Part shown: in pieces, positions 2 to 28,455 of the stretch
Numbering within the stretch: position 1 is the first letter of the stretch
How the letters are laid out: each line of letters begins with the position of its first letter
Virus record (IMG/VR): IMGVR_UViG_3300038674_000223
Coordinates: 1-28,455 of that record
DNA: 28,455 nt
Reading direction: 5' to 3' (one strand)
Origin: a virus
Lineage: Duplodnaviria > Caudoviricetes
The notes under the pieces: generated by a model
Seen by the model: only the letters and a program-made list of their open reading frames with translations
What the model was told of the DNA's origin: nothing
Database searches by the model: none
Program-made: the position numbers and the translations under genes

Positions 2-877
2 AGCACTCCCCCCGCCCTCCCCGAGTCCATCCCATCACACACCCAGGCGTGCCAGACCGCCCTCGCCAATCTCTCATCCGTCCCCCCAGCCACCCTGGCC
101 CCCTCCTCCGCTGCTCCCCTCATCGCCCCCGCCGAAGATGAGCAGTGCCTCCTCTCCTTCTTCACCGTTGAGGGGATCTCCCGTGCCCTTGTTACAACCC
201 AACTGACCGTCGAGGAGGAGTTCCGCATCCTGGCTGAGATTGCCCGAGACCCCATCAACCCCATTGTCCGCATGACCGCCCTCGACAAGATCAGAACCCG
301 ACTCCGAGACGCCCTCCTGCTCTCCGGCCAGTTTCAACGCTGCGTCGCCACCCAAACCCGAACCAACCCCGACGGCTCAGCCCTCCAGGCCAAGCTCGTC
401 ACCACCCGACTTCTCGGCCACGCCACCGAAACTGAACGGCTCCTCGCCGCCGGTTCCCGCGTCTCCGAGATCCTCGACCTCAACACCCAACCCAACCCCG
501 ATGACCTCCCCGCTCTCGACTCGCCCGTCCCCCCTTTACAGGAGAACTCCAATGCCCCAGGAACGTCCGAAGTACCGCCGACCCGCCCCGATCCCGAGGA
601 ACGGCTCCCCGGCCCACGGCCCTTCCACCCCTCCGCCGACCCCGGCGCCCTCACCTTCAAACGGAGACCTCGTCCCCGGCCCAACCGAGACCTCGGTGGT
701 GGAGGACTTGCCCAATCAAGCCGACAAGCTGCCGACGCCGCCCGTACCTCTGCCGCCCGCACCGCTACCTCCCAATCTTCAGTCCGACAAGATCCACCGG
801 CAGGCTGTCCGGGCCAAGACGGCCTACCTGATGTTCCGTCGGACCCTGAACTACAACAACATCATCCCCTGGAATAA
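2..877 (+). CDS. Terminase small subunit-like protein (5'-truncated by window edge)
   Basis: The frame of ORF 272..877 is open back to position 2. It contains LTVEEEFRILAEIARD...VRMTALDKI, resembling the helical oligomerisation segment of TerS, and lies upstream of TerL. The C-terminal part is low-complexity and overlaps the next gene. Confidence 0.5.
   Translation, partial: STPPALPESIPSHTQACQTALANLSSVPPATLAPSSAAPLIAPAEDEQCLLSFFTVEGISRALVTTQLTVEEEFRILAEIARDPINPIVRMTALDKIRTRLRDALLLSGQFQRCVATQTRTNPDGSALQAKLVTTRLLGHATETERLLAAGSRVSEILDLNTQPNPDDLPALDSPVPPLQENSNAPGTSEVPPTRPDPEERLPGPRPFHPSADPGALTFKRRPRPRPNRDLGGGGLAQSSRQAADAARTSAARTATSQSSVRQDPPAGCPGQDGLPDVPSDPELQQHHPLE
512..525 (+). repeat. 14-bp dispersed motif GCTCTCGACTCGCC, copy 1
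   Basis: Exact match; ends 26 nt upstream of ATG 552. Confidence 0.95.
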
Positions 878-1103
878 GCTCCCCCAGGCCGCTCGGTTCA
901 GCATCATGGCCGCTCTGGTCCGTCGGTTCGACGATCTCCGAGACGACGACCCCCTCCTCCAGGGAATTGCCAAGTTTGCCCCCCACACCACCACCCGCAG
1001 GGCTACCCGAATGCTGGCCCACCTGTACGGCTTCGAGGCCCTCCATGCCTGGCTCGCCACCCAGGGTGCCCCCGCTCTCGACTCGCCTCCGGAGACGACC
1101 TGA
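552..1103 (+). CDS. Hypothetical phage protein (Pro-rich N-terminus, helical C-terminal domain)
   Basis: ORF 501..1103; the better start is ATG 552, preceded by AGGAG (540-544). Its TGA overlaps the TerL ATG (TGATG). Confidence 0.7.
   Translation: MPQERPKYRRPAPIPRNGSPAHGPSTPPPTPAPSPSNGDLVPGPTETSVVEDLPNQADKLPTPPVPLPPAPLPPNLQSDKIHRQAVRAKTAYLMFRRTLNYNNIIPWNKLPQAARFSIMAALVRRFDDLRDDDPLLQGIAKFAPHTTTRRATRMLAHLYGFEALHAWLATQGAPALDSPPETT
1074..1087 (+). repeat. 14-bp dispersed motif, copy 2
   Basis: Exact match; ends 15 nt upstream of TerL ATG. Confidence 0.95.
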
Positions 1104-4259: not shown

Positions 4260-4319
4260 CCGCACTGGGATGGCTCTCGACTCGCCAGCCAGTCGCACGG
4301 AGATGGCTCTCGACTCGCC
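4250..4319 (+). repeat. 33-bp imperfect tandem repeat carrying motif copies 3 (4273-4286) and 4 (4306-4319)
   Basis: 4250-4282 and 4283-4315 match at 28/33 positions; both motif copies are exact. Confidence 0.95.
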
Positions 4320-6971: not shown

Positions 6972-6998
6972 CCGCAGACCCGGCTCTCGACTCGCCCT
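6972..6998 (+). repeat. Motif copy 5 (6983-6996) within a 27-bp sequence identical to 18850-18876
   Basis: CCGCAGACCCGGCTCTCGACTCGCCCT, just after the portal stop codon. Confidence 0.95.
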
Positions 6999-10379: not shown

Positions 10380-11297
10380 ATGTCAACCGCGACCGTCTCG
10401 CCGTTCATGCTGACTCGGCTCATTGAGTTGATTCGCCAGTACACGGACGAGCCCGCAGCCAAGGCCAAGTACAAGGATGACGACTGCCTGGCTCATGCCG
10501 AGGCCGCCTTCCAGTCTATCCTCATGGAACTGAATGGGGCGTCGGACAACCCTCTTCTCGTCCGCCACACCATCACAGTCCAGACAGGCATCTCCTCATA
10601 CTTGCTGCCTCCTTCCGTGGAGCAGATCCGCCAAGTAGGCATCCGTAATGAGGAGGGAGTCCTCCAGGCCGTTATCGACCCCCGGCCCAGTGGCTCGTTC
10701 TACGGACCTGGTTTCCGGCTGGAGGGTCGAGTTCTCCGGTTCGACTCGCCCCCTCGCCTGTCCGCCGACCTGGACCTCGAACTGCTTTATGTGCCCAATG
10801 GAGACTTCCGACTCCACTATGGTACCGTTGAAGGGGGGACGGCCGCCGTCATCGACAAGGATGGCCTCCCTTTCTCCGAGTCTCCTACCTGCGGTGTGCT
10901 GGATACACGGGACAACGCCTACGTCGGTGCCGTCCTCCGGATCATTGAATCCAACCAGAACCTCGTCCAGGAGCGGACCATCATTGCCTACGACCACCTA
11001 ACCCGCCGGGCAACAGTTGATCCGCCATTCGATCCTGTCCCGACCGGGCCTGTCCGTTACGAAGTAGTCCCCTCCTACTACCGGCTTATCGAGACGGTTG
11101 TGGCGATCCACGTTGCCCTAAGTCTGCGGGCCATCCTGGGCGACAAGCGCAAGTACGAACTCCTGGAACGTCAGTATCTGCGAGTCCTCCGTACTCTCCG
11201 AATGCAAGTGGCCCGGATGGACCCCAACCGGGGAGACACCTACCGGCATGACCGGAGGCCCCGTGCCATCTCCGGCTCCTATCGGAGGTACACTTGA
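10380..11297 (+). CDS. Head-tail adaptor / tail tubular protein A-like
   Basis: Located after the capsid; helical N-terminus (LIELIRQYTDEP...AEAAFQSILMEL), TVQTGISSYLLP motif and helical C-terminus, as in podovirus adaptors. Confidence 0.7.
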   Translation: MSTATVSPFMLTRLIELIRQYTDEPAAKAKYKDDDCLAHAEAAFQSILMELNGASDNPLLVRHTITVQTGISSYLLPPSVEQIRQVGIRNEEGVLQAVIDPRPSGSFYGPGFRLEGRVLRFDSPPRLSADLDLELLYVPNGDFRLHYGTVEGGTAAVIDKDGLPFSESPTCGVLDTRDNAYVGAVLRIIESNQNLVQERTIIAYDHLTRRATVDPPFDPVPTGPVRYEVVPSYYRLIETVVAIHVALSLRAILGDKRKYELLERQYLRVLRTLRMQVARMDPNRGDTYRHDRRPRAISGSYRRYT

Positions 11298-12830: not shown

Positions 12831-15233
12831 GTGGGCTTGAACCAGAACTGGACATACGAGTTTGGGTTGCCCGTGGCCGACTATCGGACGGAACCGGCCG
12901 CCATCTCCTATGGTATGAACACCGATCTCGTAGGTGTGGACGGCCGGTTCGTCGGCGTCCTGAAGAGGGCACCCGGGTTTGACCGTTGCTCTCGACTCGC
13001 CCTTACTACTACGGGTGAGTCCTCGGGATTCCAGCTTAGCGCGTTTAGCACGGGATTCCGCCGCAGTCGAGCCCTGGACTTCTTCCGGTATGCCGAGGTC
13101 TACAAGGGTACCACCGGGGTCATCCTCCGGGGCTTTGTTGTCCGTACCGGCCACACGTTGGCCTTCCACTACTACGATCCCCAGGAGGCCCAGTGGCTGA
13201 GCCACACGATCAGTGAGGAGTCGGCAGGCCCCATCGACATTACCTATGGGCCGAGGGCCATCTACTATACGTCCAGCCGGAGACGAGGACGTACTGTATT
13301 CTGGCATGAGGGAGAGTTCGTCAACCTGCCGTTCGGCCCCGCTCACCCCTCGGGGGCCATGATGCTGGTCCCTTCCGGCCCCATGTCCACCAACAAAGCG
13401 ACCGGGGCTTTGAGCACGCCGGTCAACCAGGACGGCCGGTACCAGATCGGAGTTCGACTCAGCGATTCTCGAAGGGGAGCGGCCACCCCCCTCTCCTGGT
13501 ACATGCTCGAAGATCCCCTGGCGCCGTCCTGGGTCAGAGAGACCCCCGCCGTTCCTCCTTCCTCCAGCCTCTACTACTTGTCCGTGGGCATTACGATCAG
13601 CCCCGAGGATGCTCGGTCCTATGACACCATAGAGGTGTACCGGTCCATCCGGGAAGGCTCGTACCTATACCGGGCATTGACCTGGCATGCCCCTTCCGAA
13701 GTTGCGGGTGCCCAAACCCTGGCGGACCTGACGGGAGTACGGCCTACTCTGTCGGGGGGAGTAACCAACAATCCTCCTTCCCCTCTGGGAGAGCAGGGGG
13801 GCGTCGTCATTATCCAGTTGGGGAACAAGAACCTCAATGGAAACATCGTAACTCTCCGCGAGGGGGTCCGCTGCCTGACGAGTGGAGTAGATGACACCCT
13901 GTTGTCGTACCTGTCGTCCTTCGACTTTCAGGAGGATACGGCGGCTGGACCGATACGGGCCTCCACTCTTCTCTATTCGGGTGGGGCGTTGTTCGCGGCG
14001 GGTGATGACCTGAATACAACGCGAGACGGTGGAGACATCCGGTTCAGCGTGTTGACTCAGCAGATGCCCGAGATATTCCCCGGATTGAATGTCCACGGGC
14101 TGGCCCGGTCGTCGGATCGAATCCTCCGCTTCCTCAAGTCCGGCAGCCTGGTATACGGGATCAGCCGAGACAAAGTGTATCGGCTGACTCGTGTAGGCAA
14201 CTTGGTCGCCTCCGAGCAGATGGATACTGGGTGGGGAGCGGTTGGGGCTGAGGCAGCAACGAATCTCGGACCCGATCTGGTCTTCCTCAGTTCCAGTGCT
14301 CTTCTTTCCATTCAGGCATCGTCCGGAACCCTGTCCACCATAAGCATTGTGGACCGGATCTTGAACCATCTATCGGAGTGGGGCGAGTCGAGAGCGGGGG
14401 TGTTCCTCGCCTACGATGCCGCTATGGCCGTCCTGTATCTGATTAACCCCGTCAAGGAAGAGGCGCTGTTGGTTTGGGGCACCTCGAATACGGTGACTCG
14501 CCGGAAGGACATGAACTTCGTCGCGGCCACTTCTGGCGTCCACCCTGTATATGGAGGTGGGGATCGTGTATTCCTGGTGACGGCTACTGGGCTGGTAGTC
14601 TCCTCTCCAGTGTCCTCGGAACCAACCACCCAACTGGGTATCGCGGGTACCATCAACGGGGTTGTCCGAGCCTCGTCGAGCGGGTCGGAGTTGTACGATC
14701 CCACCGCCCAGTTTGCGGCCGATCTCGTGGACTGCTATCTCTACATCCTGACGGGTGAGAATGCGGGGGAGAAGCGGCGCATCACCAGCAACACAGTCCA
14801 CCGCCTGGCTCTCGACTCGCCTCTTAGTGTGGAGAAGGGTGATCGTTATACGATCAGCCCGGTGCCTTTTGAGGTGGTGGGGTGGCCGCTGGGTTCGTCG
14901 GAAGACCCGAATCTGCCACGGGACTACTTTGTTCGGAGAAGGACTAGGGCACTGGGGGCCTACTTGAGGTTGCCTGGAGGGAAGTACGGGACTCCAACGG
15001 ATGACCATGCGCCCTATCCTTTGGTGACGGTGGGAGTATATGATGATATGAGTGAGCCTCCTGTCCATTCCGACTCCTTTGTGGTGCAGCAGGAGACTCA
15101 CGACAACTTTGGGCGGGTGGTGGCTGGTCGGGGGACACTGCTGCCTTTTGTTCAATGTTTGGTGTCGGGGCTCCCTCTGGAGATGATCTCGATGGTTGTC
15201 TCCGGGGAGGTAGATGACACGATGGAGATGTAG
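12831..15233 (+). CDS. Tail nozzle / tail tubular protein B-like (beta-propeller-type)
   Basis: 800 aa, beta-rich; RBS AGGAGGAG; N-terminal VLKRAPGF, internal IRFS...PEIFP and GAVG...LVFLS patterns; precedes the ejection-type genes. Confidence 0.7.
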   Translation: MGLNQNWTYEFGLPVADYRTEPAAISYGMNTDLVGVDGRFVGVLKRAPGFDRCSRLALTTTGESSGFQLSAFSTGFRRSRALDFFRYAEVYKGTTGVILRGFVVRTGHTLAFHYYDPQEAQWLSHTISEESAGPIDITYGPRAIYYTSSRRRGRTVFWHEGEFVNLPFGPAHPSGAMMLVPSGPMSTNKATGALSTPVNQDGRYQIGVRLSDSRRGAATPLSWYMLEDPLAPSWVRETPAVPPSSSLYYLSVGITISPEDARSYDTIEVYRSIREGSYLYRALTWHAPSEVAGAQTLADLTGVRPTLSGGVTNNPPSPLGEQGGVVIIQLGNKNLNGNIVTLREGVRCLTSGVDDTLLSYLSSFDFQEDTAAGPIRASTLLYSGGALFAAGDDLNTTRDGGDIRFSVLTQQMPEIFPGLNVHGLARSSDRILRFLKSGSLVYGISRDKVYRLTRVGNLVASEQMDTGWGAVGAEAATNLGPDLVFLSSSALLSIQASSGTLSTISIVDRILNHLSEWGESRAGVFLAYDAAMAVLYLINPVKEEALLVWGTSNTVTRRKDMNFVAATSGVHPVYGGGDRVFLVTATGLVVSSPVSSEPTTQLGIAGTINGVVRASSSGSELYDPTAQFAADLVDCYLYILTGENAGEKRRITSNTVHRLALDSPLSVEKGDRYTISPVPFEVVGWPLGSSEDPNLPRDYFVRRRTRALGAYLRLPGGKYGTPTDDHAPYPLVTVGVYDDMSEPPVHSDSFVVQQETHDNFGRVVAGRGTLLPFVQCLVSGLPLEMISMVVSGEVDDTMEM
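12988..13001 (+). repeat. 14-bp dispersed motif, copy 6 (intragenic)
   Basis: Exact match; read as C-SRLA. Confidence 0.95.
14382..14395 (-). repeat. 14-bp dispersed motif, copy 7 (only inverted copy)
   Basis: GGCGAGTCGAGAGC on the + strand; read as GESRA. Confidence 0.95.
14808..14821 (+). repeat. 14-bp dispersed motif, copy 8 (intragenic)
   Basis: Exact match; read as ALDSP. Confidence 0.95.
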
Positions 15234-17224: not shown

Positions 17225-18916
17225 ATGGCGTTTGGTGGAAATAGGCAACGAATCAGCGGGCCGATCAGCCCGATGGGTCCGTCCATTGGGGGGTTCACGC
17301 CTGCTCAGCAGGTGATTGATCCTCAGCAGTCGGCGATTCGGCAACGGTCGTCTGAGGCGCTGATGGAGGCGATCCGGGCTGGGTCTGAGGACTTGTCGAA
17401 GAAGCGGGCACAGGAAGCCCAGATGGCCCACGAAAGCGGGATGGAGCAGATGAAGCAGTCGGGAGAGAACTCTCGACAGATGACTGGTTTGCTGGCCGGT
17501 CTGGGCAGCCAGTTCATGCAGCAACGCCATGCCTCGAAGGAGTCGGCGGCCCAGCGAGAGCTTGACGAGCGGCTTGCGGGCCTCCGGGAAAGTGGCCTGG
17601 ACCGCAGGTGGGCGGCTGAGTTGCAGGCCCGCAAAGATTCTCAGAGCCAGACGGAGGCATTTTCGAGGGAGGTCCGGAAAGACCTTCAGGCCCGAATGGA
17701 TGCACAGCGTGCCCTCGAAGGTCTCACGTCGGGGATGCCTGATGACTACGAGGGTCTGTTGGCGCCCTACAGTGCGGCGTATGAGCACTTGAAGCAGGCG
17801 GAGATAGAGGCTCTGCAACTGGGGATGGGCCTGTATCTGGATCAGCTTTATGGGGGGGATCTGAGGTCGAAGATGTTTGGGATGACTCCCACATCGGACC
17901 TCATGAGGGCGGGAGGTATGAAGGAGGGGATGGGGGCGTCGAGCCCGGCCCGCATCATGGACGACTATATGAGGGAGAGCGGGAGCTTCCAGTCGGCGGG
18001 ACAACAGCCCAGTTCAGCGGTCATGAAGGGCTTTCGGGCCTTCAAGGACAGCATGGACCAGATGGTCCAGTTGAAGGATCAGACCGACCAGTTGAGGCAG
18101 AGTGTGCCGGTCATGATGGTTTTCGGACAGGACGCGGACCTCAGCCAGGGCCTCAAGGGTGTTGCCGTCCGAATGATGGGGATGCAGGGGGTTACGCCTG
18201 TTGTCTCTTTGGGGGAGATGCTCAACCAGATGGTGACGGTGTTCGGGGGAAAGCAGCCCCCCGAGTCGGTCGAGAAGGTTGCCATCCAGCCCCAGATGGC
18301 CTACCAGGTATCCAGTTGGCTGACGGATGCCAAGGCTGCGCTGTATAACCAGTATGATATCCTGGAGAATACTCCCTCTCTGATTCCTCCAGAGGAGCGT
18401 GAGACTCGGAAGAATCAGATCATGGGCGTGGTTCGACAGATCGACCGGATTCAGGGCAACTACCGGAAAGTGATGGGCCAGGTCGAACATCGGATGAGCA
18501 TGGTGCCCGCATACCAGGAAGGAGAGTGGGGCGACCGGCTGACGAGTGGAGACTATCCGACAATGAGGGAGGCGGTCCAGGAGATCCAGGCCCAGAAGAA
18601 TCGGCTGGCCTCATTGATTGACGGCGTTCCGATGGACCAGGTCCAGGAGGTTGTCCAGACCGCGAGGAGTGACGAGATCCGGAAGATCCAGCAGGCCAAC
18701 ATTCGGACTTCCATGCTGATGTCGGAGGGGCGCTACGAGGAAGCCATGCAGTTTATTTCTCAGACGTTGGATGAAATCTCTGCGTCTCGGCAGCAGCGGA
18801 CCCGAGAAGTCCGGAAGATGCTGCCTACCTACAAGGATGTCCAAGGTGCCCGCAGACCCGGCTCTCGACTCGCCCTTCCGGCGGCGGATGAGCCTATGGG
18901 GCCGACTGTTGAATGA
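17225..18916 (+). CDS. Putative internal virion / ejection protein
   Basis: RBS AGGAG; Gln/Met-rich helical protein; gene order. Confidence 0.6.
   Translation: MAFGGNRQRISGPISPMGPSIGGFTPAQQVIDPQQSAIRQRSSEALMEAIRAGSEDLSKKRAQEAQMAHESGMEQMKQSGENSRQMTGLLAGLGSQFMQQRHASKESAAQRELDERLAGLRESGLDRRWAAELQARKDSQSQTEAFSREVRKDLQARMDAQRALEGLTSGMPDDYEGLLAPYSAAYEHLKQAEIEALQLGMGLYLDQLYGGDLRSKMFGMTPTSDLMRAGGMKEGMGASSPARIMDDYMRESGSFQSAGQQPSSAVMKGFRAFKDSMDQMVQLKDQTDQLRQSVPVMMVFGQDADLSQGLKGVAVRMMGMQGVTPVVSLGEMLNQMVTVFGGKQPPESVEKVAIQPQMAYQVSSWLTDAKAALYNQYDILENTPSLIPPEERETRKNQIMGVVRQIDRIQGNYRKVMGQVEHRMSMVPAYQEGEWGDRLTSGDYPTMREAVQEIQAQKNRLASLIDGVPMDQVQEVVQTARSDEIRKIQQANIRTSMLMSEGRYEEAMQFISQTLDEISASRQQRTREVRKMLPTYKDVQGARRPGSRLALPAADEPMGPTVE
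18850..18876 (+). repeat. Motif copy 9 (18861-18874) within a 27-bp sequence identical to 6972-6998
   Basis: Exact 27/27 match. Confidence 0.95.
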
Positions 18917-18988: not shown

Positions 18989-19915
18989 ATGCCACGATCT
19001 AAGTATGATGATCTTCGGGATCTTCTTGGGGGTCAGGACTTGTTCCAGAAATCTCAGGGCGAGACGGACCAATATCTCAGTGAGTTTCTCGGGCTGGGAG
19101 GTGGGGAAGCCCCGGGGGCATCTCTTCCAACAAACTGGTTTGATCGGCACGAGGCTAGGACAGGCAACAAAATAGTGTATGGAGTTCCCCCTAGTGCACC
19201 GGGGGCGGAGACCGTCGGAACCGAGGAGTCGAGCACGCTGTCTGATCTGACACCCTTGCTTGTTTCGTTGGGCTTGTCGGTGCTTACCAGCCGAATGGGA
19301 CTCGGCCCAGGAGTGGGGGCTGGAATTGGGGCTGTAGGCAAGGGTTCTCGTGCCTACCGGGCAGGCCAGGCGGTCCGCAAGGGGTTGGGTAAGTTGACCG
19401 GAGGCAGGCTGGGGGGTGGCCCGGCTGCGAAGACGGCGGCACCAGCAGTGGCTGACGTGGGCAAGAAGGCTGTGGAGAATGCAGTGAAGGGGGGAGGGTG
19501 GGGCTCGAAGTTCACGAAGGTGTTGGGTGTTGCGGGGCTGGGAAGTCTGGTCGCCGAGCCGATTGTAGGGGGGTTGCAAGATACCATCGCAAGAGTGTCG
19601 GGGTCGCCGACCCGAGCGGAGCGACAGGAAGAAGAACGGTTGAATATGGAGATTGCGGCCCTGTCCAGGAAGCGGGGGGCTGAACAGGCTCTGGCGGAAG
19701 AGGAGTTGAAGTTCCGGAAGGAGTTGGTGACAGCAGAGCGGGAGATGGTAAAGGAGAGGGCGCACCAGGAGATGCTGATGCGGCTGACAGAGATTGCGGA
19801 GCAGAATCGGAGAGGGCGAGTCGAGGGGCTCATGAACATTGAGCAAGCAATCGTGAACAGTCGAGTGCAGCATATGGACAGCCTGCGGGACATCATGACT
19901 GGGTGGGCTCGCTAG
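18989..19915 (+). CDS. Putative ejection protein (Gly-rich hydrophobic segments plus coiled coil)
   Basis: ATG 18989 follows GAGGTG; glycine-zipper-like GLGPGVGAGIGAVG; C-terminal coiled coil. Confidence 0.65.
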   Translation: MPRSKYDDLRDLLGGQDLFQKSQGETDQYLSEFLGLGGGEAPGASLPTNWFDRHEARTGNKIVYGVPPSAPGAETVGTEESSTLSDLTPLLVSLGLSVLTSRMGLGPGVGAGIGAVGKGSRAYRAGQAVRKGLGKLTGGRLGGGPAAKTAAPAVADVGKKAVENAVKGGGWGSKFTKVLGVAGLGSLVAEPIVGGLQDTIARVSGSPTRAERQEEERLNMEIAALSRKRGAEQALAEEELKFRKELVTAEREMVKERAHQEMLMRLTEIAEQNRRGRVEGLMNIEQAIVNSRVQHMDSLRDIMTGWAR

Positions 19916-21613: not shown

Positions 21614-24600
21614 ATGGATAGGCCGGATTTTCGGGTGCTTGGTGGGGCTGGTGGGGCTGGCGGGCAGTCGGTGGGGGGATTTGAGTCCCCTCGGTTTATA
21701 GATAGACCCCGGTTGGCGGCCTGGAATCTGGCCAAGAGGGGCGACCCGAATGCGGCTTGGCGGTCCATGCTCCAGCCGGAGAGCTTGTCACCCGAGGAGA
21801 TGGGGTGGCAACCGGGTGAAGATGGGTCGATAGTTGGGTCGGTTATCCGGACACTGACCAACCCGATGGTTATTCTGGGGGCAGCACTGGCCTACAAGTA
21901 TCCGGTGGGGGCGGCCCGTGAGGTACTGAAGAAGGCCACGGGGGCCTTGAAGGGATATGATCGGATGCTCCCCCCGGTGATTCACCGGTTGATGGGGCCT
22001 CGGGGCATCTTTGGGAAGACCAAGTTCCTGCATTATCTGGAGGGGTTCGCGGCCGACTCGAACCACTTTAAGGCTGCGGTGACGAGCAAGGCGGGAGCCG
22101 GGCTCGACAAGTTCATTGCGAGAATGGGGAGGGCACCTACCCAGGCGGAGCAGGTGGCTGCCTCGATGGTCAGCGAGGGACTGGTCCAGAATAGTGCACA
22201 TCCATCGTGGCAGTTGGTGAGGAGACTGGCCCGGAAGGAAATGTACCTGGAGAAATACAGGAGTTCGATGGATACCGGGAAGCTCAACCGGCTGATTCGG
22301 GATGCCATCAATGCGGAGAAGAAGGGCTTGATGGGCGGGGATCTGGACATCGAGAAGAAGCTGAGGTTGGTAGGATCGGTAACTCAGCGGGACTACCTCA
22401 TGAAGCTGGCTCCCCCCGAGTTGGTGGAGTCGGGGAAAGAGTCCTTGATGGACGGACTCCGCATGATGGTTCAAGGCCGGAATGTCCAGAGGCTGACCGA
22501 TGTGAAACAGGTTCGGAGGTTGATAAGTGATAAGGGAATGGAGAAGATCCTGGAAGTACGACAGGCGACTCCGGCCCAACTACTGGATATGGCCCACAAG
22601 AAAGGATTGGATCTGCCGTCAGTGCCCCTGGAGAAGAAGGCTCAGGCCGCATTCTTCAAGGATCTGAAGGCAAAGCTGGAGTTCGGGTACCGAGAAGGGT
22701 ACTGGCCGCATTCGACTCATAGGACACCGGCTCAGCAGGAAGAGTTCGTACGGATGATGTATGAGCAGACGGCGGCGGAACGGCAGGGCATGCTGCTGTC
22801 GGGGCTGGAGCCGGTCAGCCCGAGGGCCAAGGCGTTCAGGAACGCGACCATCCCTGATGCGACGGACTTCGAGTTTGTCAGCCAGGGGTTCAGTCCCGAG
22901 ACGGCCGAGGTGCTCCGGTACCTGAAGAAGATCCCGGAGACGAAACTGGTAAACGGGGAGATCGTGACCACGGGGGCCTCCAAGTACAAGACGTACTCGC
23001 TGTACTGGAGTGCCGTCATGGAGAACTATGGGAACTCGATGGCTTCGACGTATGCCTGGAGTGCTCGGGGGTGGGGTCCGAAACTGATCCAGGAGGTTGA
23101 GGGGCCGATGTGGGTGGCCTCTCAGAAGTCGGCGGCGGGTCGCCTCAGGTATCATATCGCAAAGGAGAATGTGCTCCCGGTTGCCCTGGGTAAGCTGAGC
23201 CAGACGGAGGCGATGTACGCACTGCAATGGGGGGGCCTGAAGAAGCAGGCGTTCGACTTCTTCACTGAGACGGCAAAGTCAAACAAGTGGGGACTGGGGA
23301 GAGAGTCTCAGTGGCTGGCGGACCAGTTGGCCCGTCCGGAGATGCGGGATCTGACGTTCAAGAATGCGGGAGCTAAGCTGGCGGGATACCTCTACCTGAG
23401 TGCGTTGGGATTGAACCCAGCCAGTGCCGGGCTGAACCTGTTTCAGAACATCACGCATACTACGGGCCTGGTGCCGTTCCCCTATGTGGCGAAGGGGATG
23501 CGCGAAGCCTCAAAGGGGATGCCTACTTTCCTGAAGAAGGTGGGATCGGGGACGAAGATCGAGCAGGCATTCCTGGAGGCATGGCCGGAGTACCTGAAGC
23601 TGGGGGGGTCGTCGTCTGAAGTGTCGGAGATGTTGAGGCGAGTCCGGATGGGCGCTGGGGGGATTGCCTCCGCAAGTCGAATAGAGCAGGCCAAGAAGTT
23701 GGTCATGGGGATGTTTAGTGGGTCGGAGCGGTTCAATAAGCTGACGGCATACCATGCGGGTCGGCTGTGGGGTCTGGGAGAGAAGCTGCCTGCCTGGCAA
23801 GCGGAACGGGTAGGCATGGAGATCATGAATAGGACTCAGTTTCCGGGGGGGTTCCTGAGCCAGTCAATCATGATGCAGGGCTGGTGGCCCCCCTTCAGGC
23901 AGTTCACCCAGTTTCCCGCCAGGACATTGGAGTTGTTCACGAGCAGTCCAGGTACGATGGGCCGGATGATGGCTACTGCCGGAGTAGCCCATGAGGCTGG
24001 AAGGGCGATGGGGGTGGACTTGTCGAGAGCGATGGTGTTCGGGGCCATGCCTCAGCCTATGGGGGAAGATCAGCCGTTCTTCCCGATGCCATTCATGCCG
24101 CCGCTGTTGGGTGTGATTGGGGGGGTGGGGTCGGACCTGTTCTCGGGGGAGGCGGGGTTCACGAACACGAGGAGAAATCTACCGCTGGCGATGCCGGGAG
24201 GCGTGGCCCTGGCCCGGGTCAATCAAGTGTATGGGTCTCCGGCGGTGGCCAAGATGATCGGTCGGGGATATGCGGACTACCGGAACCCGAGGGCCGACGG
24301 CACAATCCCCGTCTATACGGCGGATGGATCATTGAGGGAGTTCCAGAGCCCCGTGGGATTATTCAAGAAGGCGGTGGGCTGGAACACCCTCATGGGCGAC
24401 CAGGAAGCGGACCTGACCAGCTATCTGGTGACTCAGCGAGACCGAATCCGGAACTACCGGAGATCCTACATTGAGGCACTGGCCGCAAACGACATGACAC
24501 GGGCCTCCACGATTCACGGAGAGTATAAGAGGGCATACCCACAGTTGGGAGACATTGTGGTGAAGCCTTCGGATATTCGGGCAGTCCACCTTCGGCATGA

Positions 24601-24919
24601 CGTGACGAGGTTGGAGCGGGTACTGGAGACAATGCCTCAGGATGCACGGGAATTGTTCGGAGGAATGGTGGGCGTGGCGATGGGGGAGATTGGGGACCAG
24701 ACCCTGGGGATGGACCCTGCCATGTTGACTCGCCAGTCAACGATTGCCAAACGAGATCCCTACCGTCGAGTCCCCCGGGGAGAGCAGGCCAGCAGGGTGG
24801 CCCAACAGATAGGTGGGGAGGAGGAGGAGCGCCCTCGAATCCGGATGGATCAGACGGGGTCGATTGGTGGAGGCGGTCAGTTTTCGGCGTTCGCACCCTT
24901 CAACGTGTTCGGGAATTAG
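21614..24919 (+). CDS. Large internal virion / ejection protein
   Basis: 1101 aa, last gene of the operon; YLSALGLNPASAGLNLFQ and RTQF...PFRQFTQFP resemble motifs of large podovirus ejection/polyvalent proteins. Confidence 0.65.
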   Translation: MDRPDFRVLGGAGGAGGQSVGGFESPRFIDRPRLAAWNLAKRGDPNAAWRSMLQPESLSPEEMGWQPGEDGSIVGSVIRTLTNPMVILGAALAYKYPVGAAREVLKKATGALKGYDRMLPPVIHRLMGPRGIFGKTKFLHYLEGFAADSNHFKAAVTSKAGAGLDKFIARMGRAPTQAEQVAASMVSEGLVQNSAHPSWQLVRRLARKEMYLEKYRSSMDTGKLNRLIRDAINAEKKGLMGGDLDIEKKLRLVGSVTQRDYLMKLAPPELVESGKESLMDGLRMMVQGRNVQRLTDVKQVRRLISDKGMEKILEVRQATPAQLLDMAHKKGLDLPSVPLEKKAQAAFFKDLKAKLEFGYREGYWPHSTHRTPAQQEEFVRMMYEQTAAERQGMLLSGLEPVSPRAKAFRNATIPDATDFEFVSQGFSPETAEVLRYLKKIPETKLVNGEIVTTGASKYKTYSLYWSAVMENYGNSMASTYAWSARGWGPKLIQEVEGPMWVASQKSAAGRLRYHIAKENVLPVALGKLSQTEAMYALQWGGLKKQAFDFFTETAKSNKWGLGRESQWLADQLARPEMRDLTFKNAGAKLAGYLYLSALGLNPASAGLNLFQNITHTTGLVPFPYVAKGMREASKGMPTFLKKVGSGTKIEQAFLEAWPEYLKLGGSSSEVSEMLRRVRMGAGGIASASRIEQAKKLVMGMFSGSERFNKLTAYHAGRLWGLGEKLPAWQAERVGMEIMNRTQFPGGFLSQSIMMQGWWPPFRQFTQFPARTLELFTSSPGTMGRMMATAGVAHEAGRAMGVDLSRAMVFGAMPQPMGEDQPFFPMPFMPPLLGVIGGVGSDLFSGEAGFTNTRRNLPLAMPGGVALARVNQVYGSPAVAKMIGRGYADYRNPRADGTIPVYTADGSLREFQSPVGLFKKAVGWNTLMGDQEADLTSYLVTQRDRIRNYRRSYIEALAANDMTRASTIHGEYKRAYPQLGDIVVKPSDIRAVHLRHDVTRLERVLETMPQDARELFGGMVGVAMGEIGDQTLGMDPAMLTRQSTIAKRDPYRRVPRGEQASRVAQQIGGEEEERPRIRMDQTGSIGGGGQFSAFAPFNVFGN

Positions 24920-24949
24920 TGCCAGACTTCAATGTGTTCGGGGATTAGT
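24898..24949 (+). repeat. Tandem duplication of a gene 3' end
   Basis: CTTCAACGTGTTCGGGAATTAGT (24898-24920) vs CTTCAATGTGTTCGGGGATTAGT (24927-24949), 21/23 identical. Confidence 0.9.
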
Positions 24950-25064
24950 AGGGGTCAGTAACGAGAAAGACCCAGCAGCAGGATGCTACCGGGCCTATCT
25001 CGACATGCTAGGTGATCCCCGATGATCTGTTTCTCCCGGTGACTCCACCTCCCTTGTTGACTGT

Positions 25065-25164
25065 TGAAAGGCTGTCTCCGGCAGCGGACCCTGCTGTAGA
25101 CAGCTATCCATGAGACGGCCCGGAGCCCCCACAGTGAAGGCTCCGGGCCTGCTCTCGACTCGCC
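25065..25164 (-). ncRNA. Candidate small RNA beginning with the reverse complement of the 14-bp motif
   Basis: Predicted +1 at 25164; 5' end GGCGAGUCGAGAGC; 11-bp hairpin at 25117-25149; second hairpin at 25071-25104 followed by CUUUC. The 3' end is approximate. Confidence 0.5.
25151..25164 (+). repeat. 14-bp dispersed motif, copy 10
   Basis: Exact match in the convergent intergenic region. Confidence 0.95.
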
Positions 25165-25170
25165 ATCCTC

Positions 25171-25198
25171 AGTATACATCAGGAATCTGGAGAGGCAA
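25171..25198 (-). promoter_or_regulatory. Sigma70-like promoter firing antisense to the structural operon
   Basis: On the - strand: TTGCCT (25198-25193), 16 nt spacer, TATACT (25176-25171). Confidence 0.6.
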
Positions 25199-25230
25199 GT
25201 CCACTTTGCGGAGATGCAGTGATTATTTTG

Positions 25231-26388
25231 TCACTCCTCGGGTAGGCACGGGTCTTCTACCCAGCCGGTCGGAGGGGTCTCCGGTAAGGCGGTTGAGTCC
25301 GGAGAGTAGACCAACTCGGCTCCCTCGTTCCAGAGGTCCGCAACTGCCGCGTCGGTGAGGCCCGTCCTCCAGATGAGTACATTCCGAATGGATATGTCAC
25401 TTCTCCATAGTCCGGGGCCTCCTCCAAGGTAGAGCATGATGGGGAGAGGGTCGTCCGAGCCGGATGGCTCCAGTTCATAGATGGTGGGAATCCCGAACCG
25501 GGTGACGTTGCTGTCTGCGGGGGTAAGTGACTCGCCATTCAGGTTGACGTAGCAGGTTCCAGAGATTCGACGAATGACAGCATGGTACCACTTGCCAATC
25601 TCGATGACACCGGTGGCACCCTGGAACATGAGGGAAGGTTCGTTGACCCCCTCACCGTAGATACCGGGTCCGTTGACACAGAAAGTAAACCCAGTCTCGT
25701 TGAAGGGGCCAGTAGAGATAGATACACGCCATGTGGGGTTGTCAGCAGGGGGTGACGCGATTGCAAGGATCTGGTTGGCGAACTCGTGGAGCATGCGAAA
25801 GGTAACACTGATGGTAAAGTCCTGGTCGGTGTCCCACCAGAGTTCGTAGTTCCCGTCGCTGCGGGAGTAGGCGGAAAGGCCCTCAGCTTCCGGGTTGCCG
25901 TACTGGAAGCCGCTGCCTAGGTGAATGATGTTGCTCTCTTCAACGTTGAGCATGTTGATGGGGAAGAAGGGAGGGCCGCCCGGCCGGGGGGTCAAGACGT
26001 TGAGGGGCGGGCCGGACAGTTCATTCATGGGGAAGCAACAGAGGAAGTATGGGGCGGCCGCATCCACGGACGCTCGGCCGAACCCTGCGATGGTAGCAGT
26101 CTGGAAGACAAAGTCTGAGAAGGTATCAACGGCCCCCTGAACAGCAGCCAAGAGTCCATCACAATCCAGAACACCCTCATTGAGGAAGGATGGGGCCAGG
26201 CTTTGGGTGACTCGGAGGGCCAGGTCTAGCCGGATGGATCTCTGGACGGCGGTAGCCAACCGGCTGTCCGTACTGCCGATAGTCTTGAGGATGGCGTCAG
26301 TGTTGTTCTGGGCGGTTAGAAGGCCCTGGGCCTCGATCAAGCGGTTGAAGGCCAGAGCAGTCTCCGGCCCCGGTTTCAGGTTAGCCAT
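25231..26388 (-). CDS. LamG / concanavalin A-like lectin domain protein
   Basis: FTISVTFR ... IEIGKWYHAVIRR...YVNLNG ... LYLGG ... IRNVLIWRTGLTDAAVADLWN follows the Laminin_G_3 pattern; RBS GGGAG. Confidence 0.8.
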   Translation of the reverse strand: MANLKPGPETALAFNRLIEAQGLLTAQNNTDAILKTIGSTDSRLATAVQRSIRLDLALRVTQSLAPSFLNEGVLDCDGLLAAVQGAVDTFSDFVFQTATIAGFGRASVDAAAPYFLCCFPMNELSGPPLNVLTPRPGGPPFFPINMLNVEESNIIHLGSGFQYGNPEAEGLSAYSRSDGNYELWWDTDQDFTISVTFRMLHEFANQILAIASPPADNPTWRVSISTGPFNETGFTFCVNGPGIYGEGVNEPSLMFQGATGVIEIGKWYHAVIRRISGTCYVNLNGESLTPADSNVTRFGIPTIYELEPSGSDDPLPIMLYLGGGPGLWRSDISIRNVLIWRTGLTDAAVADLWNEGAELVYSPDSTALPETPPTGWVEDPCLPEE

Positions 26389-26406
26389 AGTCAGTTCTCC
26401 CGAGCC

Positions 26407-26420
26407 GCTCTCGACTCGCC
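26407..26420 (+). repeat. 14-bp dispersed motif, copy 11
   Basis: Exact match in the 33-nt gap upstream of the LamG gene; a - strand TACAAT lies at 26429-26424. Confidence 0.95.
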
Positions 26421-26421
26421 T

Positions 26422-26697
26422 TTATTGTACCCGTGCAAGCCGGGGGGTTCCAATAGGGGCGTTCTCCAGTTCCCAGATGATCTGGTCCAGGTCGGAGGGG
26501 GCGATGATCTGTGCCTCTGGAAATCCGTGGGTCTTAGCATAGGCCAAGGCGTCCAGTACAACACCAACCAGGGCGTCGGCCCATTCCCCGGCCGTCTCCG
26601 GGGTAGGTGCGTAGATGGGCAGAGTCACAGGTACATCATAGAGCCGAGGCTTGTTGGTAGGTCTTGTTTTCGGTTTCTTAACTGCTTTGCGGGCCAT
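26422..26697 (-). CDS. Hypothetical protein with basic N-terminus
   Basis: ATG 26697 follows GAGGAG; begins MARKAVKKPKTRP. Confidence 0.7.
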   Translation of the reverse strand: MARKAVKKPKTRPTNKPRLYDVPVTLPIYAPTPETAGEWADALVGVVLDALAYAKTHGFPEAQIIAPSDLDQIIWELENAPIGTPRLARVQ

Positions 26698-26753
26698 TTC
26701 AGTTCTCCTCTTCAAGTTTTAGATTTCAGCTTCCAGGCTGTGCTGCAATCTCA

Positions 26754-26981
26754 TCACGACGAACATGGTAGCACCTCCTCGGCAATCTCGTACTGGCCGT
26801 CGTGAATGAGCCGACTGAGTTCAAAACATCGCACAGCCATGCGGTCGAGGTAGCAGGTCAATTCCTCGATGGCGTCATCCCGGCTAGACCCCGGGCCGGC
26901 ATTGATCCACGGGCACACGCCGCCAGCGAGTCTGACGATTGGCGATCCGTCGTGTGTGGACGCCTCTATGACGATCGTCAT
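26754..26981 (-). CDS. Small hypothetical phage protein
   Basis: ATG 26981 follows GGAGGT (alternative start 27041). Confidence 0.6.
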   Translation of the reverse strand: MTIVIEASTHDGSPIVRLAGGVCPWINAGPGSSRDDAIEELTCYLDRMAVRCFELSRLIHDGQYEIAEEVLPCSS

Positions 26982-27021
26982 AGCACCTCCCTGGCAATGT
27001 ACGCGGCCTTCCGTGACGCGA

Positions 27022-27192
27022 TCATCTGTTTGCTGCGTCATTGAGAACCTCTTCGACAGTTATTTCTTCGATTACGATTTCGTCTGGACCGGACAGGGCC
27101 GACCGGACGATTCGCACTGCCTCATCGCGGGCATCTTCAGCGTCCTCGACAGAGACGTTCAGAACGACGGATACCATTACGTTGGTGGGCAT
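27022..27192 (-). CDS. Small acidic hypothetical protein (56 aa, not in the ORF track)
   Basis: AGGAGG then ATG; MPTNVMVSVVLNVSVEDAEDARDEAVRIVRS...; fills the gap between neighbouring genes. Confidence 0.65.
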   Translation of the reverse strand: MPTNVMVSVVLNVSVEDAEDARDEAVRIVRSALSGPDEIVIEEITVEEVLNDAANR

Positions 27193-27380
27193 TGGTCGCC
27201 CTCCTGTTCGTTGGCCAGTTTCAGGGTGACGGTATAGACTCGATAGCGACCGGCAACACCCATCAACCGGCTACGGGCACCGGCTACATACTGGGCCGTG
27301 TCACGGTCGAAGAACAGGCGGCCGTTGAGTACGTCATCGGTGACGCCCGATGACACGACGTAGTAGGTGCCCTCAATCAT
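27177..27380 (-). CDS. Small hypothetical phage protein
   Basis: ATG 27380 follows GGGGAG and overlaps the upstream stop (ATGA). Confidence 0.65.
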   Translation of the reverse strand: MIEGTYYVVSSGVTDDVLNGRLFFDRDTAQYVAGARSRLMGVAGRYRVYTVTLKLANEQEGDQCPPT

Positions 27381-27703
27381 TGGCCGCTCCCCTCTGGCGG
27401 AAGAAGAATCCATGGGACACACATTGCGGTGGACAGACCCATGCTAGATGGCGATCCTGATGTTCCATAGATAGTCACATCGCCTCCCCTGATAACGTAG
27501 ACGGTGGAGAATCCAGCTTGCTTTGCCATTCCACCATTCTCCATATGAGCCAGGGCCTCTGCGAATGGCACCAGCTTCGGTTCGGGCTCGGGCGGCTCGA
27601 AAAGAGCTTCCACTATCTCGTTTCGCAGACTGAAGGCGAGCCCGTTGGGCAGGTAGACGGTAGAGTTATCCCCGCTCAACCAGCGTGCAACCCTACATTC
27701 CAT
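27377..27703 (-). CDS. Hypothetical protein; C-terminal half weakly DUF2829/Tad2-like
   Basis: 3' part of ORF 27377..27982; PFAEALAHMENGG...VPW; start position uncertain. Confidence 0.55.
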   Translation of the reverse strand: MECRVARWLSGDNSTVYLPNGLAFSLRNEIVEALFEPPEPEPKLVPFAEALAHMENGGMAKQAGFSTVYVIRGGDVTIYGTSGSPSSMGLSTAMCVPWILLPPEGSGQ

Positions 27704-27751
27704 CCCTGCATTCACCTTACGTCTCACTGGTTTGTTTATCGCACACCTCCA

Positions 27752-27894
27752 CGCGGACGGCCGGAGTCGAACCGGCTTACTCGTTTGAGGCCCAAGGCTC
27801 ACGCTGCCCGTCGGCAACTGCTTGGGCGGTGTACTCTCGGGTTCTAAGCCCAACCCTACACCGAAGGTCGCGTGTCCCACCACGCCGCATCCGC
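27752..27894 (-). ncRNA. tRNA-like RNA with acceptor, D and T arms but an expanded central domain
   Basis: Acceptor GCGGAUG/CGUCCGC; D-arm GCGU-GGUGGGAC-ACGC; T-arm GCCGG-UUCGACU-CCGGC; ~90-nt insert; no encoded CCA. Confidence 0.75.
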
Positions 27895-27895
27895 A

Positions 27896-28115
27896 TGCCG
27901 GCCTCACACCGGCTCGACCCTCTGGGCTGTCACGCCTAGTTATATGGCGGCGTTCCCTGATCGCGCGGGGCCTGGCATCCATGGGCTTACGCTAATCCGG
28001 CAGTCTCCCCATGGTCTACTGCTCAGCAATGCTCTGCCGCCTGGACACACCAGGCATAGGCCCCTTCTTAGCAATACTGCCGGCCTCACACCGGCTCGAC
28101 CCTCTGGGCTGTCAC
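27896..28115. repeat. Two identical 38-bp direct repeats (27896-27933 and 28078-28115)
   Basis: TGCCGGCCTCACACCGGCTCGACCCTCTGGGCTGTCAC occurs twice. Confidence 0.95.
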
Positions 28116-28157
28116 ACCACACGGCGTACGTTCGGCAGGTGTCGCCAAGGCCCCAAA

Positions 28158-28397
28158 TCACTTGTCGTCGCAAGACACTCCACCATCATGCGCCTGGAGA
28201 ACCTTCCCGAGCCGCATGCGGGCATCTTCCAAGTGACGGTAGGCGAGCATGATGTTCGCTTTCGTCTCGCCATGCTGCCCAATCCAGGCCTGCGGCTCGC
28301 CGAACACTGAATGACCCATCAGCGCGTGGGTATCCATTCCGATCTGCTTGATCGTGGCCCTCAACCGATCGCACTCATCATTAAACTTCGGCTCCAT
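28158..28397 (-). CDS. Small helical phage protein, weakly Acb2/Tad1-hairpin-like
   Basis: RBS AGGAG; KANIMLAYRHLEDARMRLGKVLQA. Confidence 0.7.
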   Translation of the reverse strand: MEPKFNDECDRLRATIKQIGMDTHALMGHSVFGEPQAWIGQHGETKANIMLAYRHLEDARMRLGKVLQAHDGGVSCDDK

Positions 28398-28455
28398 TGG
28401 TCATTCTCCTATTGGCACTATTGCCATGCGGCGGGCCGGATCTGCCCCGGCCTCG

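Follow-up and report, generated by a model that had tools for sequence, protein, structure and literature searches.

A candidate small RNA is predicted family-wide in a group of podophages: a short guide segment lying directly before a hairpin is complementary to a motif dispersed through the phage's own genome, and sequence comparison indicates that motif and RNA segment change together from phage to phage. It appears very probable that this RNA is real and acts through pairing with these sites, and it is most likely an RNA that acts on the phage's own DNA rather than an mRNA antisense regulator. Our leading reading, to which we give a probability of roughly 45%, is that the RNA would serve as a primer whose hairpin is removed as a flap by a nuclease and whose freed end is extended by the phage PolA.

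The window, by which we mean the entire 28.5-kb (28,455-nt) stretch of DNA that was analysed, is a fragment of a podophage-like virus. Its only matches in PHROGs are to the terminase large subunit and to one unknown family, a Pfam scan of it returned zero matches, and comparison with an annotated phage collection yielded nothing beyond terminase matches of 23-29%. On its minus strand, G25164, the first base of GGCGAGTCGAGAGC, lies 6 nt past the -10 element of a predicted promoter (Table 1). The sequence-only reading had noted this promoter, the 14-mer at the predicted +1, the two hairpins that follow and 11 exact copies of the motif (the reverse complement of GGCGAGTCGAGAGC), and all of these are confirmed in the sequence. 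On its own the window promoter is at chance level, because sites of such quality number 2 in the region 24000-28455 against 1.7 expected. Folding of a 105-nt RNA from this start gives two hairpins with an energy of -57.3 kcal/mol (z -4.68), which was equalled by 0/200 shuffles. The earlier proposal of a free 14-nt seed holds in that the 5' segment matches the motif, but only nucleotides 1-8 are clearly unpaired in the fold model (0.86-0.99), while nucleotides 9-12 form pairs with the sequence flanking hairpin 1 on its 3' side. Similarly, the proposed length of ~100 nt agrees with the two-hairpin fold, but the CUUUC tail after hairpin 2 is a poor terminator; since the hairpin at 24996-24968 is a better one, the primary transcript may perhaps be ~205 nt long.

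A near-identical locus (L108) differs from the window over 400 nt by 4 substitutions and 1 insertion, all of which fall within hairpin 2 and preserve its fold. A 74-aa ORF overlapping the RNA was rejected on the ground that the 1-nt insertion in L108 breaks its frame. The adjacent non-virion-strand gene of 385 aa (25231-26388, minus strand) is without a family match and found no relatives in the viral collection; by eye only, its product resembles a lectin/laminin-G-type domain. Further along the same strand a 38-nt direct repeat is present in two copies ~180 bp apart (27900-28115).

The motif is the top 9-mer among the 22,942 of the window, with 10 of its exact copies on the plus strand and one on the minus strand. 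Conservation among the copies ends sharply on both sides and, as had been claimed, one of these ends coincides with the base matching the predicted +1. Many sites are intergenic and upstream of ribosome-binding sites; five exact copies lie mid-gene in differing reading frames, which implies that the constraint acts at the nucleotide level. The motif is also not limited to the virion operon, as had been supposed: a scan of the collection recovered an 8-kb replication-module record (G001) with seven exact copies of the 14-mer, three on the plus and four on the minus strand. G001 has no overlap with the window; from the shared motif, a promoter like that of the window preceding its PolA gene, and the gene order in a complete relative (G002), we infer that it comes from the phage of the window or from a very close one. 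All 18 full copies in the two records match perfectly. The window contains in addition a second dispersed motif of 12 nt, ACGGGCCTCCAC, with six copies in both orientations (3714+, 5217+, 9892-, 12646-, 13955+ and 24499+), a near-identical counterpart of which is dispersed in G003/G006/G024. No RNA unit for it was found within the window; a second guide RNA, encoded in the part of the genome beyond the window, may go with it.

Table 1. Features of the candidate RNA locus and positions of the dispersed motif in the window.
Feature	Positions	Strand	Remarks
Predicted sigma-70-type promoter for the RNA	25171..25198	-	TTGCCT-16-TATACT; 9/12 consensus matches
Candidate guide/primer segment	25151..25164	-	14 nt, from predicted +1; same as dispersed motif
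Hairpin 1	25117..25149	-	directly 3' of guide; 15-bp stem in model; predicted 3' flap once guide is annealed
Hairpin 2	25071..25104	-	fold kept in near-identical L108
Terminator-like hairpin	24968..24996	-	likely 3' end of primary transcript
Last virion-strand gene	21614..24919	+	1101 aa; synteny marker; RNA points at its 3' end
Exact target site	512..525	+	guide complement on +; within ORF 2-877
Exact target site	1074..1087	+	just upstream of terminase large subunit gene
Two exact target sites	4273..4319	+	33 bp apart; intergenic
Exact target site	6983..6996	+	between putative portal and scaffold genes
Partial site	10741..10750	+	guide's 5' 10 nt kept
Exact target site	12988..13001	+	coding sequence
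Exact target site	14382..14395	-	coding sequence; reversed orientation; unable to pair with mRNA
Exact target site	14808..14821	+	coding sequence
Exact target site	18861..18874	+	coding sequence
Partial site	19815..19825	-	guide's 5' 11 nt kept; reversed orientation
Exact site	26407..26420	+	leader of minus-strand 385-aa gene, 3 nt past weak -10; unable to pair with that mRNA

The relatives are podophage genomes of ~50 kb, each with its own dispersed motif of 9-17 nt and between 5 and 48 sites per genome; every long-record relative examined that has the replication module carries such a motif. Proteins of one of them were found in assemblies labelled Phycisphaerae and Bacillota, and another contig in a Gemmatimonadota assembly. 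The complete relative G002 (49.7 kb, with terminal repeats) is 37% identical to the window in the 1101-aa marker protein, and at the syntenic place and in the same direction it has TTGCCA-17-TATATT, 6 nt, a different sequence and then a long hairpin. This different sequence at the +1 is the top dispersed 12-mer of G002. The unit recurs at the position and in the direction of the window also in G036, G039, G044 and G047, where it has the Sak4 gene on one side and the 1101-aa homologue on the other and is directed at the 3' end of the latter. A second arrangement is seen in G009, G011, G013, G018 and G028-G032, in which one motif copy just downstream of the ERCC4 gene stands directly before a hairpin and U-run, mostly preceded by a near-consensus promoter; units without a recognisable promoter are those of G003, G018, G027, G039 and G051. 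At the level of loci fetched with PolA, 59/68 have a motif with at least five dispersed copies, and in 30 of these 59 the same unit is, by eye, the best motif-adjacent hairpin; many of the remaining motif-bearing loci stop short of the place where it is expected. A 34-kb fragment (G023) with nine copies of its own motif had no unit, the usual unit region being missing from it.

Some genomes may have more than one such unit. At G002:25714 (minus strand) one of three long copies of a second motif abuts a strong hairpin with no clear promoter, which suggests two RNA units in one genome, and G040 likewise has two motifs. A further conserved hairpin outside coding sequence, its paired stems variable, was seen at G009:16688+, G013:3819+, G012:13959+, G020:21020+ and L222:1801-; as a guide, this locus of the G009 clade was rejected because G011 has an altered motif before it but an unchanged genome motif. 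The sequence AGGCCC was also considered as the beginning of a conserved scaffold. Of 80 loci found in a scan for promoter-G-N12-16-AGGCCC, G002 was the only family member, and the sequence was dropped as a family marker because the other 79 are without a dispersed seed and ordinary terminators of these phages also start with AGGCCC.

The co-variation of seed and dispersed sites in related phages, anticipated by the sequence-only reading, is borne out at several levels. A matrix of guide counts by genome (18 x 19) is diagonal, and in 14/18 records the 9-mer ranked first is the one that precedes the hairpin, a result that is by itself partly circular as the units were chosen as motif copies. In 24/24 units examined, the conservation among the genome's other sites reaches the hairpin base and then stops. 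Across 10 distant units, which are nevertheless kin, the stem has nine pairs that are 100% paired, seven of the nine having changed on both sides (0/500 shuffles). The hairpin of the window is tied to these distant ones by architecture and position, the sequences being unalignable. As the units were first found via motif copies, we ran blind tests in which the motif was picked by over-representation only and had to have an 8-bp stem and a pyrimidine tail following it within at most 8 nt. Such matches occur in 18/20 records against 7.9 expected, and when a promoter at most 75 nt upstream is added, in 8/20 records, the window among them, against 0.26 expected; in both cases the records are related, and examples had been seen before the thresholds for promoter and stem were fixed. 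The blind matches in G031, G027 and G040 differ from the units picked earlier. Lax tests of hairpin adjacency are weak for individual genomes (P 0.014-0.93; 0.036 for the window), and another lax test was positive in 15/21 genomes with a per-genome chance of 0.06-0.92. The control record G033, which shares virion genes with the family and has no PolA or ERCC4 match, was kept outside the blind tally and gave four stem matches from a clustered GC-rich repeat; in this record seven copies of a GC-rich element of ~24 nt are clustered in the non-virion region (G033:2090-13304).

The orientation of the sites bears directly on whether mRNA or DNA is the target. P1/P7 C4 and P4 CI are small structured antisense RNAs of temperate phages, with a small number of mRNA targets in a single orientation, and the RNA of the window resembles them in being small, structured and complementary in short segments to phage sequences. 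The sequence-only reading had accordingly favoured multi-target control of the late mRNA: 8/10 of the other exact copies in the window could pair with virion-strand mRNA, several of them near start codons, with a duplex energy of -28.9 kcal/mol. Family-wide, however, sites in coding sequence number 92 sense against 92 antisense (16 records). Several genomes show a motif strand bias, which does not follow the direction of transcription: where genes run opposite to the virion genes, the sites still tend towards the genome strand preferred elsewhere (31 vs 18, p 0.085), which is not what mRNA pairing predicts. A search for integrases of the tyrosine type found one in 1/32 near-complete genomes. 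The C4-like proposal fails on these three counts, the equal orientations, the bias relative to transcription and the 31/32 genomes without a tyrosine integrase; further against it are the perfect matching of all full copies and a search of Rfam, C4 covariance models included, that found no match in the window and seven related loci. We therefore consider it very improbable. The sole such integrase is that of G002, where integrase, excisionase-like and possible ribbon-helix-helix genes together with a tRNA-like fragment lie beside the RNA promoter (L117:3966-5374).

Dispersed asymmetric sites may also be operators. Cluster A mycobacteriophages are reported to have 20-30 asymmetric, lineage-dependent stoperators of 13-14 bp, some of them in promoters (PMC6550527), and the sites described here are likewise many, asymmetric and lineage-specific (9-17 bp). 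On this account the motif would be bound by a phage protein and the promoter-motif-hairpin would be a mere regulated leader or attenuator. It would accommodate the GAGG-like core that several lineage motifs have in common, and the motif copies that G009 and G011 carry, in either orientation, within the -35/-10 spacers of five strong promoters. Two candidate proteins could be named for it. One is a conserved HTH-like family encoded upstream of the terminase genes (L118:9061-9903, L001:3-416) with weak MerR/Xis-like winged-helix look-alikes; it was rejected as a partner, there being no Pfam family above the cut-off and no solved relative, and the atlas look-alikes being merely leads. The other, a Cro-like gene that follows the unit in one clade, was set aside because it is present in 7/32 genomes only. 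Stoperators are protein-recognised, follow transcription, act in temperate immunity and have no linked hairpin RNA, whereas the sites of this family are not oriented by transcription and integrases are few. Moreover, the motif abuts the hairpin at varied positions, often without a downstream gene, through more than 12 motif changes. Orientation, scarcity of integrases and motif-hairpin contact thus weaken the plain-operator alternative of the sequence-only reading, and we judge it quite improbable. A T7-like late promoter was also rejected as an identity for the motif in view of its two orientations and mid-gene positions.

We next consider the replication genes with which the RNA is associated. 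The family has a set comprising a UDG-PolA, an ERCC4 (XPF-like) nuclease, a PD-(D/E)XK exonuclease, a Sak4 annealase and a helicase; G001 encodes the UDG-PolA, the ERCC4 nuclease, the exonuclease and an AAA_24 (Sak4) protein, and by inference the missing replication region of the window's own genome resembles it. The ERCC4 nuclease is present in 70/73 PolA loci, with the exonuclease and Sak4 genes near PolA/ERCC4. The ERCC4 proteins match Pfam ERCC4 and phrog_3490 and retain GDY and ERK in 8/8 inspected, the strict GDXnERKX3D pattern holding in 2/8, as the spacing in these proteins reads ERK-x3/x4-D/E instead of ERKX3D; a single-sequence structure model had a pLDDT of 37 and was not used. A primase is what these genomes appear to lack: searches of 32 near-complete genomes, with positive controls, gave 0 matches above the cut-off for Prim-Pol, Toprim_2, DNAG_N, DNA_primase_S, AEP-TOTE and Toprim_3, and no primase domain was listed among the 106 and 87 non-virion ORFs scanned. 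A single sub-threshold match to a primase model, in G011, is stop-ridden, and the SF3 and SF4 helicases align only to the helicase half of primase-helicase profiles (for example, positions 340-767 of 772). Among dsDNA viruses with a DNA polymerase, a primase is reported in 98%, and non-canonical priming has been suggested for the exceptions (PMC4889955). A diverged primase could hide among the many unannotated ORFs, and the host DnaG could be borrowed for priming.

That no primase gene is detectable points to the RNA as a possible primer, the reading that we favour. In the mechanism that we propose, the small RNA would be a ready-made primer for replication of the phage DNA: its 9-14-nt segment would pair with genome sites in single-stranded form, perhaps with the help of Sak4, so that the hairpin projects as a 3' flap; the phage XPF-like nuclease would cut the hairpin off; and PolA would extend the freed 3' end of the remaining 9-14-nt RNA. 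XPF-family enzymes are described as freeing 3' flaps from annealed intermediates (PMC6320978), and the RNA fits a primer donor because its annealed 5' segment would leave the hairpin as a flap of this substrate class. Transcription, RNA:DNA pairing, flap cleavage and extension are each inferred from sequence. We tentatively favour, at slightly less than even odds, a family that would have swapped its primase for RNA-programmed priming with guide-hairpin RNA, Sak4, XPF-like nuclease and PolA at tens of co-evolving sites. At G009:17353-17384 and G012:17652-17683, two inverted motif copies 14 bp apart form a conserved non-coding, origin-like arrangement.

Certain features sit less easily with priming. 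The sites are spaced 2-3 kb apart per strand in dense genomes, which speaks for priming, but sparse ones have five (G002), 6-7 (G018) or nine (G040), with single-strand gaps of up to ~20 kb, and these are too few to sustain ordinary Okazaki priming. The partial sites of the window retain the guide's 5' end better than its hairpin-proximal end, which weakens the priming reading, as do the promoter-spacer copies in G009/G011, which look regulatory. The latter, along with copies that adjoin other promoters and the many window sites that are intergenic and before ribosome-binding sites, would suit an RNA that guides a non-cutting phage protein to double-stranded sites and represses or blocks transcription there, as a natural CRISPRi-like switch. 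Such a regulator would fit the co-variation and both-strand evidence equally well. TldR, IscB/omegaRNA, TIGR-Tas and VIPR are RNA-guided DNA-binding systems with a 5' guide and scaffold, programmable on either strand, and the present RNA shares this layout and either-strand recognition; unlike them, it would have a single guide that matches its own genome many times, with no array. An action on DNA sites, which the sequence-only reading had raised as a second option along with a TnpB-like partner, is nearer to the evidence than mRNA antisense, but it has no listed effector of a known family: Pfam and PHROG scans of the window (its missing ~22 kb being outside), G001, G002 and the non-virion ORFs of relatives listed no Cas9/IscB, Cas12/TnpB/TldR or TIGR-Tas effectors, and the ORFs scanned in G002 and relatives gave no listing of a Cas, TnpB/IscB or Nop-domain family. 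The flank profiles of the sites are near background, with no clear PAM-like base. Guides of 9-10 nt with 35-48 sites, half of them in coding sequence, would be odd for gene control, and the missing primase would be left unexplained. We hold an RNA-guided regulator to be unlikely, though it is the most probable of the alternatives to priming.

The same replication module permits a further reading, in which the RNA marks sites for recombination or DNA-degradation enzymes (the PD-(D/E)XK exonuclease, Sak4 or the ERCC4 nuclease), which would read them as a Chi-like self signal programmed by RNA. To our knowledge, Chi recognition, where known, is protein-only, and such a signal does not explain why conservation of the sites stops exactly at the hairpin base; we regard it as rather improbable. 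Like Chi, the sites are dispersed on both strands, and the nuclease-annealase module travels with the system. The outcome, which we hold equally improbable, would be that recombination-dependent replication is promoted or that phage DNA is spared. Recombination intermediates are themselves described as able to prime replication without a primase (PMC3016281), so that this account is close in spirit to priming and hard to separate from it.

An operon with ubiquitin-like (ThiS-like), JAB and ThiF components is found in G002 (L118:1477-5187) and also in G018, G023, G028, G029, G031, G032, G040 and G051.

Priming by a transcript has precedents, of which ColE1 RNA II is one, forming a transcript-primed origin. 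Such R-loop or transcript-primed origins, including T4 oriF and oriG, resemble the present system in having a promoter-made RNA complementary to DNA, in our case by sequence only. At origins of the T4 oriF type the transcript is reported to be hybridised to DNA, trimmed by a nuclease to a 3'-OH and used to prime synthesis in cis (PMC3016281). The R-loop origins act in cis at a single origin and involve RNase H, whereas the phage RNA is proposed to work in trans at 5-48 sites spread over both strands, through a guide of 9-17 nt that co-evolves with them and with a predicted 3'-flap cut. In retroviral reverse transcription the polymerase is primed by a tRNA, a structured RNA made beforehand, of which a short stretch anneals to a dedicated site, much as we propose here. 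The tRNA is, however, a host RNA that uses its native 3' end at one RNA site, whereas the phage RNA would use a 5' or internal segment at many DNA sites and need trimming. Using narrow sets of search terms, we found no description of a guide-hairpin RNA system of this kind in the open-access literature.

If the priming reading is true, these phages would have a new way of starting DNA synthesis in double-stranded DNA viruses, which would account for an unusual departure from the pairing of viral DNA polymerase with primase (98% in the survey cited above, PMC4889955). Their replication start sites would be reprogrammable via 9-14 nucleotides, and the RNA with three or four proteins would constitute a small programmable system for site-specific initiation of DNA synthesis. 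Even should one of the rival readings hold, an RNA that resembles a guide and changes in step with tens of sites in the same phage's genome, over dozens of lineages and with no known RNA-guided effector detected, would point to an undescribed form of RNA-directed DNA recognition.
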